Part shown: one piece after another, positions 4,752 through 29,706 of the stretch
Layout of the letters: each line of letters opens with the position of its first letter
Numbering within the stretch: the stretch's first letter is position 1
Virus record (IMG/VR): IMGVR_UViG_2571042636_000009
DNA from: a virus
Lineage: Duplodnaviria > Heunggongvirae > Uroviricota > Caudoviricetes
Length of the DNA: 36,219 bases
Strand: one strand, 5' to 3'
The notes under the pieces: model-generated
What the model was told of the DNA's origin: nothing
The model's database searches: none
The model's input: the letters and a program-made list of their open reading frames with translations, nothing else
Position numbers and translations under genes: made by a program

Positions 4752-4809
4752 AAAAAGGGCGGCAGAGCAGTCACGGAGTAAAACTGATACCGCCAAACGT
4801 CACCAGAAA
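4752..4809 (-). ncRNA. dicF: DicF small regulatory RNA (ftsZ-targeting sRNA)
   Basis: Minus strand reads TTTCTGGTGACGTTTGGCGGTATCAGTTTTACTCCGTGACTGCTCTGCCGCCCTTTTT, matching the DicF sequence as I recall it; located between ydfC and dicB as in Qin. Exact ends are approximate. Confidence 0.85.
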
Positions 4810-11535: not shown

Positions 11536-11750
11536 TTGATTTTATATTGGCGAGGTGACGTGAGTTAAGTAGAATTGCTGCGGGTGCTTGAGGCTATCTG
11601 CCTCAGGCATGAACACCAAAGGCAGATAGAGAAAAGCCCCAGTTAACATTACGCGTCCTGCAAGACGCTTAACATTAATCTGAGGCCAATTTCATGCTAG
11701 ACACATGTAGGTTAGCCTCTTACGTGCCGAAAGGCAAGGAGAAGCAGGCT

Positions 11751-11906
11751 ATGAAGCAGCAAAAGGCGATGTTAATCGCCCTGATCGTCATCTGTTTAAC
11801 CGTCATAGTGACGGCACTGGTAACGAGGAAAGACCTCTGCGAGGTACGAATCCGAACCGGCCAGACGGAGGTCGCTGTCTTCACAGCTTACGAACCTGAG
11901 GAGTAA
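11751..11906 (+). CDS. hokD: Hok-family membrane toxin HokD (RelF), 51 aa
   Basis: Translation MKQQKAMLIALIVICLTVIVTALVTRKDLCEVRIRTGQTEVAVFTAYEPEE recognised as HokD/RelF; the in-frame upstream extension from 11694 is read as a mok-like leader. Confidence 0.9.
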   Translation: MKQQKAMLIALIVICLTVIVTALVTRKDLCEVRIRTGQTEVAVFTAYEPEE

Positions 11907-14490: not shown

Positions 14491-14536
14491 CTGATGAATC
14501 CCCTAATGATTTTTATCAAAATCATTAAGTTAAGGT

Positions 14537-14605
14537 AGATACACATCTTGTCATATGATCAAATGGTTTCGCCAAAAATCAATAATCAGACAACAAAATG
14601 TGCGA
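14537..14605 (-). ncRNA. IS10 RNA-OUT antisense RNA (approximate coordinates)
   Basis: Placed from known IS10 organisation (RNA-OUT is antisense to the transposase translation start near the outside end); not independently verifiable here. A GATC Dam site at 14558-14561 lies in the pIN region. Confidence 0.4.
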
Positions 14606-15806
14606 ACTCGATATTTTACACGACTCTCTTTACCAATTCTGCCCCGAATTACACTTAAAACGACTCAACAGCTTAACGTTGGCTTGCCACGCCTTACTTG
14701 ACTGTAAAACTCTCACTCTTACCGAACTTGGCCGTAACCTGCCAACCAAAGCGAGAACAAAACATAACATCAAACGAATCGACCGATTGTTAGGTAATCG
14801 TCACCTCCACAAAGAGCGACTCGCTGTATACCGTTGGCATGCTAGCTTTATCTGTTCGGGCAATACGATGCCCATTGTACTTGTTGACTGGTCTGATATC
14901 CGTGAGCAAAAACGGCTTATGGTATTGCGAGCTTCAGTCGCACTACACGGTCGTTCTGTTACTCTTTATGAGAAAGCGTTCCCGCTTTCAGAGCAATGTT
15001 CAAAGAAAGCTCATGACCAATTTCTAGCCGACCTTGCGAGCATTCTACCGAGTAACACCACACCGCTCATTGTCAGTGATGCTGGCTTTAAAGTGCCATG
15101 GTATAAATCCGTTGAGAAGCTGGGTTGGTACTGGTTAAGTCGAGTAAGAGGAAAAGTACAATATGCAGACCTAGGAGCGGAAAACTGGAAACCTATCAGC
15201 AACTTACATGATATGTCATCTAGTCACTCAAAGACTTTAGGCTATAAGAGGCTGACTAAAAGCAATCCAATCTCATGCCAAATTCTATTGTATAAATCTC
15301 GCTCTAAAGGCCGAAAAAATCAGCGCTCGACACGGACTCATTGTCACCACCCGTCACCTAAAATCTACTCAGCGTCGGCAAAGGAGCCATGGATTCTAGC
15401 AACTAACTTACCTGTTGAAATTCGAACACCCAAACAACTTGTTAATATCTATTCGAAGCGAATGCAGATTGAAGAAACCTTCCGAGACTTGAAAAGTCCT
15501 GCCTACGGACTAGGCCTACGCCATAGCCGAACGAGCAGCTCAGAGCGTTTTGATATCATGCTGCTAATCGCCCTGATGCTTCAACTAACATGTTGGCTTG
15601 CGGGCGTTCATGCTCAGAAACAAGGTTGGGACAAGCACTTCCAGGCTAACACAGTCAGAAATCGAAACGTACTCTCAACAGTTCGCTTAGGCATGGAAGT
15701 TTTGCGGCATTCTGGCTACACAATAACAAGGGAAGACTCACTCGTGGCTGCAACCCTGCTTACTCAAAATCTATTCACACATGGTTACGTTTTGGGGAAA
15801 TTATGA
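14598..15806 (+). CDS. IS10 transposase
   Basis: 402-aa ORF MCELDILHDSLYQFCPELHLKRLNSL..., recognised as IS10 transposase; starts at IS position 108. Confidence 0.95.
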   Translation: MCELDILHDSLYQFCPELHLKRLNSLTLACHALLDCKTLTLTELGRNLPTKARTKHNIKRIDRLLGNRHLHKERLAVYRWHASFICSGNTMPIVLVDWSDIREQKRLMVLRASVALHGRSVTLYEKAFPLSEQCSKKAHDQFLADLASILPSNTTPLIVSDAGFKVPWYKSVEKLGWYWLSRVRGKVQYADLGAENWKPISNLHDMSSSHSKTLGYKRLTKSNPISCQILLYKSRSKGRKNQRSTRTHCHHPSPKIYSASAKEPWILATNLPVEIRTPKQLVNIYSKRMQIEETFRDLKSPAYGLGLRHSRTSSSERFDIMLLIALMLQLTCWLAGVHAQKQGWDKHFQANTVRNRNVLSTVRLGMEVLRHSGYTITREDSLVAATLLTQNLFTHGYVLGKL

Positions 15807-25816: not shown

Positions 25817-27324
25817 TGGCAATTCTTGATGATGTGATTGGCGTTTTTTCACCAGGATGGAAAGCGGCAAGGCTGCGTTCCCGTGCGGTGATCCAGGCTT
25901 ATGAGGCCGTAAAAACGACGCGGACACACAAAGCCCGACGGGAGAACCGAACTGCCGACCAGTTAAGCCAGTACGGGGCCGTGTCGTTACGTGAGCAGGC
26001 CCGTTACCTTGATAACAACCACGATCTGGTTATTGGTGTATTTGACAAGCTGGAAGAACGGGTGGTGGGGAAAAACGGGATTATTGTCGAGCCACATCCG
26101 GTATTACGCAATGGGGCCATTGCCCGTGACCTGGCTGCGGAGATTCGCACCCGATGGAGTGAATGGTCTGTCAGCCCGGAAGTCACCGGGCAGTTTACCC
26201 GTCCGATGCTGGAACGTCTGATGCTTCGTACCTGGCTGCGCGATGGTGAGGTGTTTGCCCAGATGGTTTCCGGGCGCATAAACAGCCTGACGCCTTCTGC
26301 CGGTGTTCATTTCTGGCTGGAGGCGCTCGAGCCGGACTTTATTCCCATGACCAGTGATGAGAGCAACAGGCTGAATCAGGGCGTGTTTGTTGATGACTGG
26401 GGGCGTCCCGAAAAATATCTGGTGTATAAAAGCCGTCCCGTATCCGGACGGCAGATGGAAACCAAAGAAGTGGATGCAGAGCGAATGCTGCATCTTAAAT
26501 TTGTTCGCCGTCTGCACCAGATGCGCGGGACGTCTTTATTGTCCGGTGTGCTGATCCGCCTCAGTGCTCTGAAAGAGTATGAAGATTCTGAGCTGACTGC
26601 AGCAAGGATCGCCGCTGCTCTGGGGATGTACATCCGGAAAGGCGACGGGCAGAGCTATGAAGCGGATGGTAATGGCAGCAAGGATAAGGAACGCGAGCTT
26701 ACCATTCAGCCAGGCATTATTTACGATGATCTGAAACCCGGCGAAGAAATCGGAATGGTGAAGTCGGATCGCCCCAATCCTAACCTTGAAACTTTTCGTA
26801 ATGGTCAGTTGCGTGCCGTGGCGGCGGGCAGTCGTCTGAGTTTTTCCAGTACAGCGCGCAACTATAACGGCACTTACAGCGCCCAGCGTCAGGAGCTGGT
26901 TGAATCCACTGATGGCTACCTGATCCTGCAGGACTGGTTTATTGGTGCCGTCACCCGTCCGATGTATCGTGCCTGGCTGAAACAGGCTGTGGCATCCGGT
27001 GTTATCAGGCTACCCCGCGATCTTGACCGTTCTTCACTGTATACCGCGGTGTATTCCGGACCGGTGATGCCGTGGATTGACCCTGTTAAGGAGGCTGAGG
27101 CCTGGAAAATCCAGATTCGTGGTGGAGCGGCGACAGAATCAGACTGGGTACGTGCTGGTGGTCGTAATCCGGATGATGTCAAACGTCGGCGCAAGGCCGA
27201 AATTGATGAAAACCGCAAACTGGATCTGGTATTTGATACCGATCCGGCCAGTGATAAAGGAGGCAGCAGTGCCGCAACGAAACGACATGAGCCGCAGCAC
27301 ACCGACGACCAGTCCGAAGAATAA
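25816..27324 (+). CDS. Portal protein (lambda gpB-like)
   Basis: 502-aa ORF overlapping the W stop (TGATG), in the canonical position after the large terminase and W. Confidence 0.8.
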   Translation: MAILDDVIGVFSPGWKAARLRSRAVIQAYEAVKTTRTHKARRENRTADQLSQYGAVSLREQARYLDNNHDLVIGVFDKLEERVVGKNGIIVEPHPVLRNGAIARDLAAEIRTRWSEWSVSPEVTGQFTRPMLERLMLRTWLRDGEVFAQMVSGRINSLTPSAGVHFWLEALEPDFIPMTSDESNRLNQGVFVDDWGRPEKYLVYKSRPVSGRQMETKEVDAERMLHLKFVRRLHQMRGTSLLSGVLIRLSALKEYEDSELTAARIAAALGMYIRKGDGQSYEADGNGSKDKERELTIQPGIIYDDLKPGEEIGMVKSDRPNPNLETFRNGQLRAVAAGSRLSFSSTARNYNGTYSAQRQELVESTDGYLILQDWFIGAVTRPMYRAWLKQAVASGVIRLPRDLDRSSLYTAVYSGPVMPWIDPVKEAEAWKIQIRGGAATESDWVRAGGRNPDDVKRRRKAEIDENRKLDLVFDTDPASDKGGSSAATKRHEPQHTDDQSEE

Positions 27325-29296
27325 TTCCTGGTTCAGGATGCAGGCTGGTCACCAGAGTGACGCGGATATTTATATTTATGACGAGATTGGTTTCTGGGGT
27401 GTTACAGCGAAGCAGTTTATCAGTGATCTGAATGCACTGGGCGATATCACCCACATTAATCTCCATATTAATTCACCGGGTGGCGATGTCTTTGAAGGCA
27501 TCGCCATTTTTAATGCGCTGAAAACACATGGTGCGTCCATTACCGTTTATGTCGACGGTGTGGCGGCGTCAATGGCGTCGGTCATTGCGATGGTGGGAAA
27601 CCCGGTCATTATGCCGGAAAACACCTTCATGATGATTCATAAACCATTTGGCTTTACGGGCGGTGATGCGGAGGACATGCGCACCTATGCCGACCTGCTC
27701 GATAAAGTTGAGGCGGTTCTGTTACCCGCTTATGCACAGAAAACCGGGAAAACCACCGATGAAATTGCTGCCATGCTGGCGGATGAGACCTGGATGTCCG
27801 GTGCCGAATGTCTGGCACATGGATTTGCTGATCAGGTAACGCCAGCCGTTAAGGCAATGGCATGTATTCAGTCAAAACGTACAGAGGAATTTAAAAAGAT
27901 GCCGGAATCCATTCGAAACATGATTACTCCGCCACGCAACAGTGCTCCACGCGTACAGGATAATGAACCTGAAGCCTCCCGGACGCCAGTGCAGGCAGCA
28001 GCACCCGTGGTGGATGAAAACAGCATCCGTGCGCAGGTACTGGCAGAGCAAAAAGCGCGTGTAAACGGTATTAATGATCTGTTTGCCATGTTTGGCGGGC
28101 GTTATCAGACGCTGCAGGCTCAGTGTCTTGCCGATCCTGAATGTTCGCTGGAGCAGGCCCGCGAAAAGCTGTTGAACGAGATGGGGCGCGAGTCCACGCC
28201 ATCCAATAAAAATACCCCGGCTCATATTTATGCCGGTAACGGTAATTTTGTGGGGGACGGGATCCGCCAGGCGCTGATGGCGCGTGCCGGATTTGAAAAA
28301 ACCGAACGTGATAATGTTTACAACGGGATGACCCTGCGTGAATATGCCCGTATGTCACTAACTGAACGGGGTATTGGGGTTTCCGGTTATAACCCGATGC
28401 AGATGGTCGGTGCGGCGTTCACACACAGTACGTCTGACTTCGGTAATATTCTGCTGGATGTTGCGAACAAAGCCATTCTGCAGGGCTGGGAAGATGCCCC
28501 TGAAACCTATGAACAGTGGACGCGGAAAGGTCAGTTGTCTGATTTTAAAATTGCCCATCGTGTGGGTATGGGTGGCTTCAGTGCTCTGCGTCAGGTGCGT
28601 GAAGGGGCGGAATATAAATACGTCACCACCGGAGATAAACAGGCCACTATTGCACTGGCGACCTATGGCGAGCTGTTCAGTATCACCCGTCAGGCCATTA
28701 TCAATGATGATCTGAATATGCTGACCGATGTCCCGATGAAACTGGGCCGTGCGGCGAAATCCACTATTGCCGATCTGGTTTATGCCATTCTGACGTCTAA
28801 CCCGAAAATCTCCACAGATAATGTAAGTCTGTTCGATAAAGCGAAACATGCAAACGTACTGGAGAGCGCTGCAATGGACGTGGCATCGCTGGATAAAGCC
28901 CGCCAGTTGATGCGCGTTCAGAAAGAGGGGGAGCGTCATCTGAATATTCGTCCTGCGTTCGTACTGGTACCGACGGCGATGGAGTCTGTTGCTAACCAGG
29001 TCATTCGCTCCTCAAGTGTCAAGGGGGCTGACATTAACGCCGGTATTATTAACCCGGTGAAAGATTTTGCGACCGTTATTGCAGAGCCTCGTCTTGATGA
29101 TAACAGCCAGACCACCTTCTACCTGGCTGCGTCAAAAGGCTCCGATACGATTGAAGTGGCTTATCTCAACGGTGTGGATACGCCATATATTGATCAGATG
29201 GAGGGCTTCAGTGTGGATGGCGTGACAACGAAAGTGCGTATTGACGCCGGTGTCGCGCCAGTTGATCACCGCGGTCTGGTGAAATGTACGGCGTAA
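27269..29296 (+). CDS. Prohead protease (ClpP/S49-like) fused to major capsid protein
   Basis: 675-aa ORF with AAAGGAGG 6 nt before the GTG at 27269. The N-terminal 200 aa look like a ClpP/S49 peptidase (NSPGGDVFEGIAIFNAL, VDGVAASMASVIAMVG); the rest is capsid-sized. Followed by a strong terminator. Confidence 0.75.
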   Translation: MPQRNDMSRSTPTTSPKNNSWFRMQAGHQSDADIYIYDEIGFWGVTAKQFISDLNALGDITHINLHINSPGGDVFEGIAIFNALKTHGASITVYVDGVAASMASVIAMVGNPVIMPENTFMMIHKPFGFTGGDAEDMRTYADLLDKVEAVLLPAYAQKTGKTTDEIAAMLADETWMSGAECLAHGFADQVTPAVKAMACIQSKRTEEFKKMPESIRNMITPPRNSAPRVQDNEPEASRTPVQAAAPVVDENSIRAQVLAEQKARVNGINDLFAMFGGRYQTLQAQCLADPECSLEQAREKLLNEMGRESTPSNKNTPAHIYAGNGNFVGDGIRQALMARAGFEKTERDNVYNGMTLREYARMSLTERGIGVSGYNPMQMVGAAFTHSTSDFGNILLDVANKAILQGWEDAPETYEQWTRKGQLSDFKIAHRVGMGGFSALRQVREGAEYKYVTTGDKQATIALATYGELFSITRQAIINDDLNMLTDVPMKLGRAAKSTIADLVYAILTSNPKISTDNVSLFDKAKHANVLESAAMDVASLDKARQLMRVQKEGERHLNIRPAFVLVPTAMESVANQVIRSSSVKGADINAGIINPVKDFATVIAEPRLDDNSQTTFYLAASKGSDTIEVAYLNGVDTPYIDQMEGFSVDGVTTKVRIDAGVAPVDHRGLVKCTA

Positions 29297-29319: not shown

Positions 29320-29339
29320 GGCCCGTAAGGGCTTTTTTT
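29320..29339 (+). terminator. Rho-independent terminator after the capsid gene
   Basis: GCCC-GTAA-GGGC followed by TTTTTTT. Confidence 0.6.
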
Positions 29340-29382
29340 GTACCTGAAATCAGCCCCTGAACGGGGCTGTGCGGAGACAGTT

Positions 29383-29706
29383 ATGGCAAAGAATTTTGTA
29401 GAAGAAGGAAAAACGGTGGCGATTGTTGCCAGTGCAGCCATCAGCAGCGGAGATCTGGTGCAGGTGGGTGATGTTTTTGCGGTGGCGCTGACCGATATTC
29501 CACAGGGTGAAACAGGCGACGGCATGACCGAAGGTGTGTTTATCCTGCCTAAACTGAAAACGGATGACATGAAAACGGGTAAGAAGGTTTATCTGAAGTC
29601 CGGAAAAGTTCAGCTGACTAACAGCGGCTCTGATCCGCTGGTCGGGGTTGTCTGGGCAGATGCCGGAACCAGTGCAGAAGAAGTGCCGGTAAAACTCAAT
29701 GTCTGA
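29383..29706 (+). CDS. Head decoration / DUF2190-like small structural protein
   Basis: 107-aa Gly/Val-rich ORF directly after the capsid gene. Confidence 0.55.
   Translation: MAKNFVEEGKTVAIVASAAISSGDLVQVGDVFAVALTDIPQGETGDGMTEGVFILPKLKTDDMKTGKKVYLKSGKVQLTNSGSDPLVGVVWADAGTSAEEVPVKLNV

Follow-up and report, generated by a model that had tools for sequence, protein, structure and literature searches.

We describe here a gene of an Escherichia coli lambdoid prophage that encodes a ClpP-like prohead protease, a scaffold-like region, and the major capsid protein as one polypeptide chain. It lies in the IMG/VR virus record IMGVR_UViG_2571042636_000009 (Caudoviricetes; 36,219 nucleotides, the whole of which is referred to below as the window), whose left part matches Tritos, HannyBb, and mEp460-like phages. 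The gene is very probably the E. coli lambdoid-prophage version of the tripartite capsid gene typified by that of Gifsy-2, with a processing pathway of the Gifsy-2/HK97 type. The direct observations comprise the open reading frame (ORF) and its start site, the three-part architecture, the protease and capsid folds, the conservation of catalytic residues, synteny, and family membership. A preliminary description, made from the sequence alone, had proposed a fusion of protease, scaffold, and capsid protein in a single polypeptide, and this proposal is supported by both folds, by the finding of no other capsid gene in the head module, and by the homology with Gifsy-2.

A close parallel among the known systems compared here is the Gifsy-2 product (NC_010393, 22471-24561), to which the ORF aligns unbroken over 669 residues with 70% identity and 84% similarity. 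Both match the NCBIfam model NF045540 (949.6 bits for Gifsy-2), and in both a single ORF comprises a ClpP-like protease, a middle region of ~200 residues, and a capsid protein with the HK97 fold. The order of the genes is also the same, namely terminase, small ORF, portal, fusion gene, Phage_cement_2 gene, and tail genes; in both, the 3' end of the portal gene contains the start of the fusion gene, which is followed by a hairpin with a T-run and then by the Phage_cement_2 decoration gene. The differences concern the host (E. coli here, Salmonella for Gifsy-2), the length of the product (675 versus 696 amino acids, mainly owing to the N-terminal tail and the disordered linker), the start codon (GTG after a strong AAAGGAGG here, ATG in Gifsy-2), and the overlap with the portal gene (56 versus 86 nucleotides). 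The fused 'tripartite capsid gene' of Gifsy-2 (STM1033/STM1034.3n) is credited by a citing paper to Effantin et al. (2010, Virology 402:355), and in later papers its capsid is given as T=7 (PMC8814770) and its decoration protein as a trimer located at the 3-fold axes (PMC8538268).

The three-part architecture emerged from family models and was refined by structure prediction (Table 1). Among Pfam families, CLP_protease matched residues 31-191 (E 2.8e-36) and Phage_capsid_4 matched residues 377-672 (E 2.8e-54), the latter together with a weaker Mu-like_gpT match; the 675-residue ORF with protease and capsid parts, and the capsid-sized domain at its C-terminus, both postulated in the preliminary description, were thus found, with both folds detected in one uninterrupted frame. 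Curated cut-offs were applied to the NCBIfam models (475 bits for NF045540, 525 bits for NF045541, and 155 bits for TIGR00706 SppA_dom). With 986.6 bits, the match to NF045540, curated as 'ClpP-like prohead protease/major capsid protein fusion protein', extends from residue 32 to 674 and covers profile positions 2-651 of 652, and residues 15-675 match PHROG 133, a profile of 668 positions. An AlphaFold2 model based on a shallow alignment of 15 close relatives was useless, with a predicted local distance difference test score (pLDDT) of 36; with 97 diverged fusion proteins (33-99% identity) the mean pLDDT was 85.5, and the structural features given below refer to that model.

Residues 1-17 are predicted to be disordered and precede the compact peptidase domain. 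The linker at residues 223-246 shows the lowest conservation and the highest gap fraction along the protein in the 97-sequence alignment, and the differences in length among relatives of 675, 686, and 690 amino acids map to it. In the middle region, for which no Pfam domain was matched between residues 250 and 385, predicted helices span residues 250-273, 280-288, and 294-308 and, beyond a low-confidence loop (309-326), residues 327-339, 356-365, and 376-385; the disordered linker and the helical region together make up residues ~193-385. From residue ~386 to the end, the model shows a mixed alpha/beta domain with a long helix (483-510), and the HK97 fold of this part was confirmed. A search of the PDB with the capsid half as a single sequence yielded marginal matches only (E 3e-4), and a profile built from the middle region together with the C-terminal part matched capsid chains of solved structure, namely 8rkc/8rkx (E 3e-12) and 9jod (E 4e-12). 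In BFVD, the matches comprised ClpP-like proteases of phages and capsid proteins, each as an unfused chain, and among the latter was a capsid protein of 284 amino acids (TMt 0.81). No other capsid gene was found in the head module, from the portal gene up to the genes for decoration and tail proteins, and the shell protein must therefore come from the fusion ORF.

A short motif, Phe/Tyr208-x-x-x-Pro212 (window 27890-27904), stands out just past the ClpP domain, amid variable sequence. Among the 97 diverged fusions, position 208 is occupied by Phe in 66 and by Tyr in 21, and Pro212 is present in 93; the motif could be a docking or cleavage determinant.

The peptidase had been described beforehand as 'ClpP/S49-like', of which the ClpP (S14) part holds and the S49 part does not. 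All of the best-scoring peptidase models belong to S14, Peptidase_S49 gave no match in Pfam at E <= 0.01, and TIGR00706 SppA_dom scored 22.3 bits, far below its cut-off. All 97 diverged fusions have Ser101 and His124, and also Gly71 and Gly72 of the oxyanion region. The HMMER alignment pairs Glu173 (..adEtwms..) with the catalytic Asp of Streptococcus pneumoniae ClpP (..erDnwms..); of the 97 sequences, 86 have Glu and seven have Asp here, which makes 93 with an acidic residue, and the neighbouring Asp172 is not conserved, being Lys in Gifsy-2. Because the serine, the histidine, and both glycines are invariant and position 173 is acidic, the domain looks active, judging by its residues, with Ser-His-Glu in place of the canonical Ser-His-Asp, and the prevalence of Glu173 suggests that this lineage of prohead proteases has a Ser-His-Glu variant of the ClpP triad.

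The gene is intact in viable phages, as its near-identity with that of isolated phages indicates: over all 2028 nucleotides, it shares 99.0-99.7% DNA identity with vB_EcoS-569R4, Ayreon, HannyBb, mEp460, cdtI, and Tritos. Compared with the window, mEp460, cdtI, Ayreon, HannyBb, Tritos, and the E. coli prophages differ only by point substitutions, such as Met7 here versus Arg, and their records differ in the annotated start codon and the product name. Among 5426 complete E. coli genomes, 2125 (~40%) carry the gene under the RefSeq fusion name, and 2017 hold it at a coverage of at least 80%. We also searched 1.84 billion cluster representatives (clusters at 50% identity) and examined the best 150, all of which had E < 1e-98; most are 640-700 amino acids long and align in one stretch over residues ~20-672 with 35-60% identity. 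The fused architecture is kept in more than 100 diverged clusters. Pseudomonas phage F10 carries the same fusion with 56% identity.

The fused arrangement is already known, from Gifsy-2 in 2010 and from NCBIfam and PHROG families of its own, and it is ordinary in E. coli. Its discovery value here is small, the gene being among the commonest head genes of E. coli prophages. What matters more in practice is annotation hygiene, as many records label the gene only 'protease', 'scaffold', or 'Nu3' or place its start at the wrong codon. Pipelines designed to find capsid genes can also miss the fused form: in PMC8814770, for example, no HK97-fold capsid protein was obtained for Gifsy-2.

For this 73.5-kDa chain we propose the following pathway. 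Translation would begin at GTG 27269 and is probably coupled to that of the portal gene, because the latter extends past this start codon. The C-terminal HK97-fold domain would then build capsomers and the procapsid, with the N-terminal ClpP-like protease and the helical middle region facing inward as a built-in scaffold, as does the delta domain of HK97. In that phage, scaffolding resides in an N-terminal extension of the HK97-fold capsid protein, the delta domain, which is cut off by the phage protease inside the prohead. The middle region is presumed to be an equivalent internal scaffold. After shell assembly, the tethered serine protease (Ser101-His124-Glu173) would remove the protease and scaffold parts, most plausibly by cuts in the flexible segments around 223-246 and 309-326 and/or ~366-376; these candidate segments would leave capsid proteins of ~40, 34, or 31.5 kDa. 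The mature capsid protein would accordingly measure ~31-40 kDa, and the shell would expand on DNA packaging and be cemented by the decoration protein of 107 amino acids encoded directly downstream. We infer that the chain processes itself in the procapsid, where the cuts fall, and that residues ~193-385 act as a scaffold; self-processing is the accepted reading because the ORF is a full-length homolog of the Gifsy-2 gene with 70% identity. The authors who described the Gifsy-2 gene reportedly distinguished an N-terminal ClpP-like protease, a central domain of ~200 residues with a possible scaffolding function, and a C-terminal capsid protein, and are said to have studied procapsids and capsids by cryo-electron microscopy.

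Several points weigh against this interpretation. The position of the catalytic Asp of ClpP holds Glu173, so that the triad, as read from the alignment, is not canonical. ClpP normally acts as heptameric rings, an arrangement that does not readily account for the activation of a copy attached to capsid hexamers and pentamers. The terminator-like hairpin behind the gene is energetically weak (folding energy z = -0.84). Self-processing of this particular protein is a prediction from its architecture and its homology with Gifsy-2, and the details of Gifsy-2 processing come in turn from citing papers. The family offers a convenient system for studying the activation of a ClpP-fold protease by capsid assembly. 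As the domains would be tethered to capsomers of 5- and 6-fold symmetry, a canonical ClpP ring is doubtful. We tentatively consider, as a possibility that we hold to be less probable than its negation, that this is a non-canonical ClpP with a Ser-His-Glu triad that acts independently of rings, its placement and activation being governed by the 5- and 6-fold capsomers to which the ~415 copies per procapsid are covalently tethered. The invariant Ser and His, the conserved Glu, the presence of one protease per capsid subunit, and the lack of a conserved internal start among the relatives are consistent with it; if true, it would be a natural example of an assembly-activated, ring-independent protease of the ClpP fold.

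The same two features, Glu in place of the canonical Asp and the difficulty of forming heptameric rings from tethered domains, could instead mean that the ClpP-like domain has no catalytic activity and contributes nothing but scaffold mass, any processing being left to a host protease or another phage protease. We regard this as highly improbable in view of the four residues that are invariant in all 97 fusions and the acidic residue at position 173 in 93 of them, and the head module contains no other protease gene. A negligible chance attaches to the idea that the ORF is an artefact or a pseudogene in which a sequencing error, or a frameshift mutation of this copy, has fused a protease-scaffold gene to a capsid gene, although some older annotations do call the product 'protease/scaffold protein' alone or 'major head protein' alone. 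The check for a frameshift found none: the gene aligns in a single piece to isolated phages and unbroken to Gifsy-2, and the same uninterrupted ORF occurs in the isolated phages (99%), in the 2017 complete E. coli genomes mentioned above, in Pseudomonas phage F10, and in the diverged clusters. Because the ORF is conserved in this way, such an artefact is excluded.

The two remaining alternatives concern where translation starts. The reading frame is open from TTG 27077 to the stop codon at 29294-29296, and a scan of all in-frame start codons found a perfect AGGAGG before GTG 27269 only, which opens 675 codons. As the preliminary description had claimed, this GTG follows a strong ribosome-binding site inside the 3' end of the portal gene (AAAGGAGG at 27256-27263, the start lying 56 nucleotides inside the portal gene). 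In the junction alignment, AAAGGAGG with its 5-nucleotide spacer is kept in mEp460 and in an Stx2d phage, and AAAGGAGGCA(G/A)CAGTG is conserved among E. coli relatives with just 77% DNA identity; the column of GTG 27269 holds the GTG of the Stx2d phage and the annotated ATG of Gifsy-2. The databases disagree on the start, the RefSeq/PGAP product comprising the same 675 amino acids and the GenBank coding sequence of mEp460 beginning at the equivalent of ATG 27338 (652 amino acids). That ATG 27338 is the true start is unlikely. It has in its favour the mEp460 annotation, the predicted disorder of residues 1-17, the onset of Gifsy-2 homology at residue 18, and the fact that, with G27274 missing (see below), it is the sole ATG able to yield a free protease-capsid chain. 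It lacks a proper ribosome-binding site, however, having only an AGG directly abutting it, and Gifsy-2 has no Met there, its annotated ATG aligning with GTG 27269 instead; the conserved AAAGGAGG and spacer and the PGAP call of the 675-residue form likewise speak for the GTG. ATG 27287 was rejected as a start, as it is specific to the window (Met7 here, Arg in relatives). Since the ribosome-binding site is conserved, the Gifsy-2 ATG falls in the same column, ATG 27287 is restricted to the window, and Gifsy-2 has no Met at the position of 27338, GTG 27269 is, on this sequence comparison, the best-supported start. The predicted disorder of residues 1-17 means that the choice is of little structural consequence.

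Nested expression would place a second start inside the gene. In lambda, Nu3 is made from an internal start within gene C, and on this precedent an internal in-frame start could yield a scaffold-capsid or capsid-only product, with the protease present on a minority of the subunits. Crowding offers some argument for such an arrangement, as 385 extra residues on all ~415 subunits of a T=7 shell would densely fill the interior of the procapsid, and a weak GAGGAA motif precedes Met211. Among all in-frame ATG, GTG, and TTG codons, however, there is none with a good Shine-Dalgarno sequence, a score of 5/6 being reached only at codon 302 (14-nucleotide spacer) and at codon 649, near the C-terminus. 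Position 211 is not conserved either (Val in 20, Ala in 18, Met in 13, Pro in 13, and Ile in 12 of the 97 sequences), and initiation at Met211 was rejected on account of its weak ribosome-binding site and this lack of conservation. With no conserved internal start for a separate scaffold protein found among these codons and in the 97-sequence alignment, we consider nested expression distinctly improbable and retain a single chain, translated from GTG 27269, as the product of the gene.

About ten database proteins of 1158-1159 amino acids (P0006, P0007, P0009-P0015, and P0017) are read-through products that combine portal, protease, scaffold, and capsid parts. In the contig of P0007, a single G corresponding to window position 27274 is deleted, by which the portal frame enters the fusion frame and the GTG-initiated frame ends at the portal TAA. 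Programmed frameshifting or read-through was rejected as their origin, as the change is a 1-nucleotide deletion at a site that is neither a homopolymer nor slippery and such variants are few against the thousands of normal copies; they probably represent a mutant (defective) prophage lineage. P0228 (468 amino acids) was considered as an unfused scaffold-capsid relative and found uninformative: it is probably a truncated call, because its gene starts 36 nucleotides from the end of a 1.5-kb contig.

The gene was also compared with the HK97 and lambda head systems. It resembles HK97 gp4/gp5 in having an HK97-fold capsid protein with a presumed scaffold in an N-terminal extension, and differs in that the HK97 protease is a separate gene with the S78 family fold, whereas here it is ClpP-like and part of the same chain, and in that the HK97 shell is stabilised by covalent chainmail, whereas here a decoration protein is encoded. 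With lambda it shares the lambdoid head module, a portal and terminase of the lambda family, a serine protease of the ClpP clan linked to the scaffold, and a small decoration protein. In lambda, gpC belongs to S49, Nu3 is nested in C, and the capsid protein has a gene of its own, E, located after D; in the prophage, an S14 peptidase and the other parts form one chain, and the decoration gene lies behind the capsid part. A sister family, NF045541/PHROG 4523, has homologous scaffold-like and capsid parts, which residues 223-672 of the window protein match (E 3e-120), but with 402.5 bits against the cut-off of 525 the window protein is not a member. The layout is likewise fused in Ralstonia phage YO178_1 (2392-4422), whose product scores 744 bits with NF045541, matches PHROG 4523 'major head and protease protein', and is 31% identical over residues 224-672 of the window protein; its N-terminal protease is of another, non-ClpP type and gives no CLP_protease match. 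The NF045541 type looks like an in-place swap of the protease type in front of the same capsid module.

Table 1. Features of the fusion gene and its immediate surroundings in the window (residues are numbered from GTG 27269).
Feature	Position	Strand	Remarks
Portal gene, lambda family	25816..27324	+	502 amino acids from ATG 25816 (start taken from the translation and from P0007); Pfam Phage_portal_2 E 5.9e-82; extent as in the mEp460 portal coding sequence
Shine-Dalgarno sequence AAAGGAGG	27256..27263	+	5-nucleotide spacer to GTG 27269; read directly in the sequence
Fusion ORF (prohead protease of ClpP type, scaffold-like region, major capsid protein)	27269..29296	+	675 amino acids, 73.5 kDa; stop codon included
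ClpP-fold serine peptidase domain	27329..27844	+	Residues ~21-192; compact alpha/beta
Putative catalytic Ser101	27569-27571	+	Context GVAASMAS
Putative catalytic His124	27638-27640	+	Context MMIHKP
Glu173, putative third catalytic position	27785-27787	+	From the HMMER alignment to S. pneumoniae ClpP
Disordered Pro/Ala-rich linker of variable length	27935..28006	+	Residues 223-246; pLDDT <50
Helical middle region	28016..28423	+	Residues 250-385; AlphaFold2 pLDDT 85-95 outside loop 309-326
HK97-fold major capsid protein domain	28424..29293	+	Residues ~386-675, ~31.5 kDa
Terminator-like hairpin GGCCC-GTAA-GGGCT with a run of 7 T	29320..29340	+	Hairpin itself 29320-29333
Head decoration (cement) protein gene	29383..29706	+	107 amino acids; Phage_cement_2 E 1.3e-20; PHROG 122 'head decoration' E 1.4e-46

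In the late region, the fusion gene is preceded by the genes encoding the small terminase (DUF1441), the large terminase (GpA), an ORF of 72 amino acids, and the portal protein; the final 56 nucleotides of the portal gene overlap the start of the fusion gene in a different frame. It is followed by genes encoding the decoration protein, a protein of 91 amino acids, the tail proteins Z, U, V, and G, and the tape-measure protein. A terminator behind the ORF had been noted in the preliminary description, and the hairpin with its T-run is present there; the same element is annotated as a rho-independent terminator in mEp460, its folding energy is unremarkable, and Gifsy-2 has an equivalent hairpin in the same place with an identical stem and a different loop. 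A second hairpin, cagcccc-tgaa-cggggctg (window 29346-29366), lies downstream of the terminator-like one and ahead of the ribosome-binding site that serves the decoration gene, and Gifsy-2 carries at the same position (24613-24629) a hairpin of unrelated sequence, ccggcac-ggc-gtgccgg. Because the structure is kept while the sequence changes, the second hairpin is a candidate regulatory element and could act in RNA processing or in translational control of the decoration gene.

Elsewhere in the prophage, Rfam models pointed to several further elements. A match to RNA-OUT (97 bits; 14536-14605, minus strand) adjoins an ORF encoding a DDE transposase of 402 amino acids (14598-15806, plus strand), and together they look like an IS10-type insertion sequence within the early/regulatory part of the prophage. 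The match to the sok antitoxin RNA (120 bits; 11582-11756, plus strand) implies a toxin-antitoxin locus of the hok/sok type, and that to the DicF small RNA (77 bits; 4757-4808, minus strand) falls in the early leftward region. Between the lysis and terminase genes, a match to the cspA thermoregulator 5' untranslated region (111 bits; 20690-21105, plus strand) indicates a cold-shock protein gene borne by the prophage.

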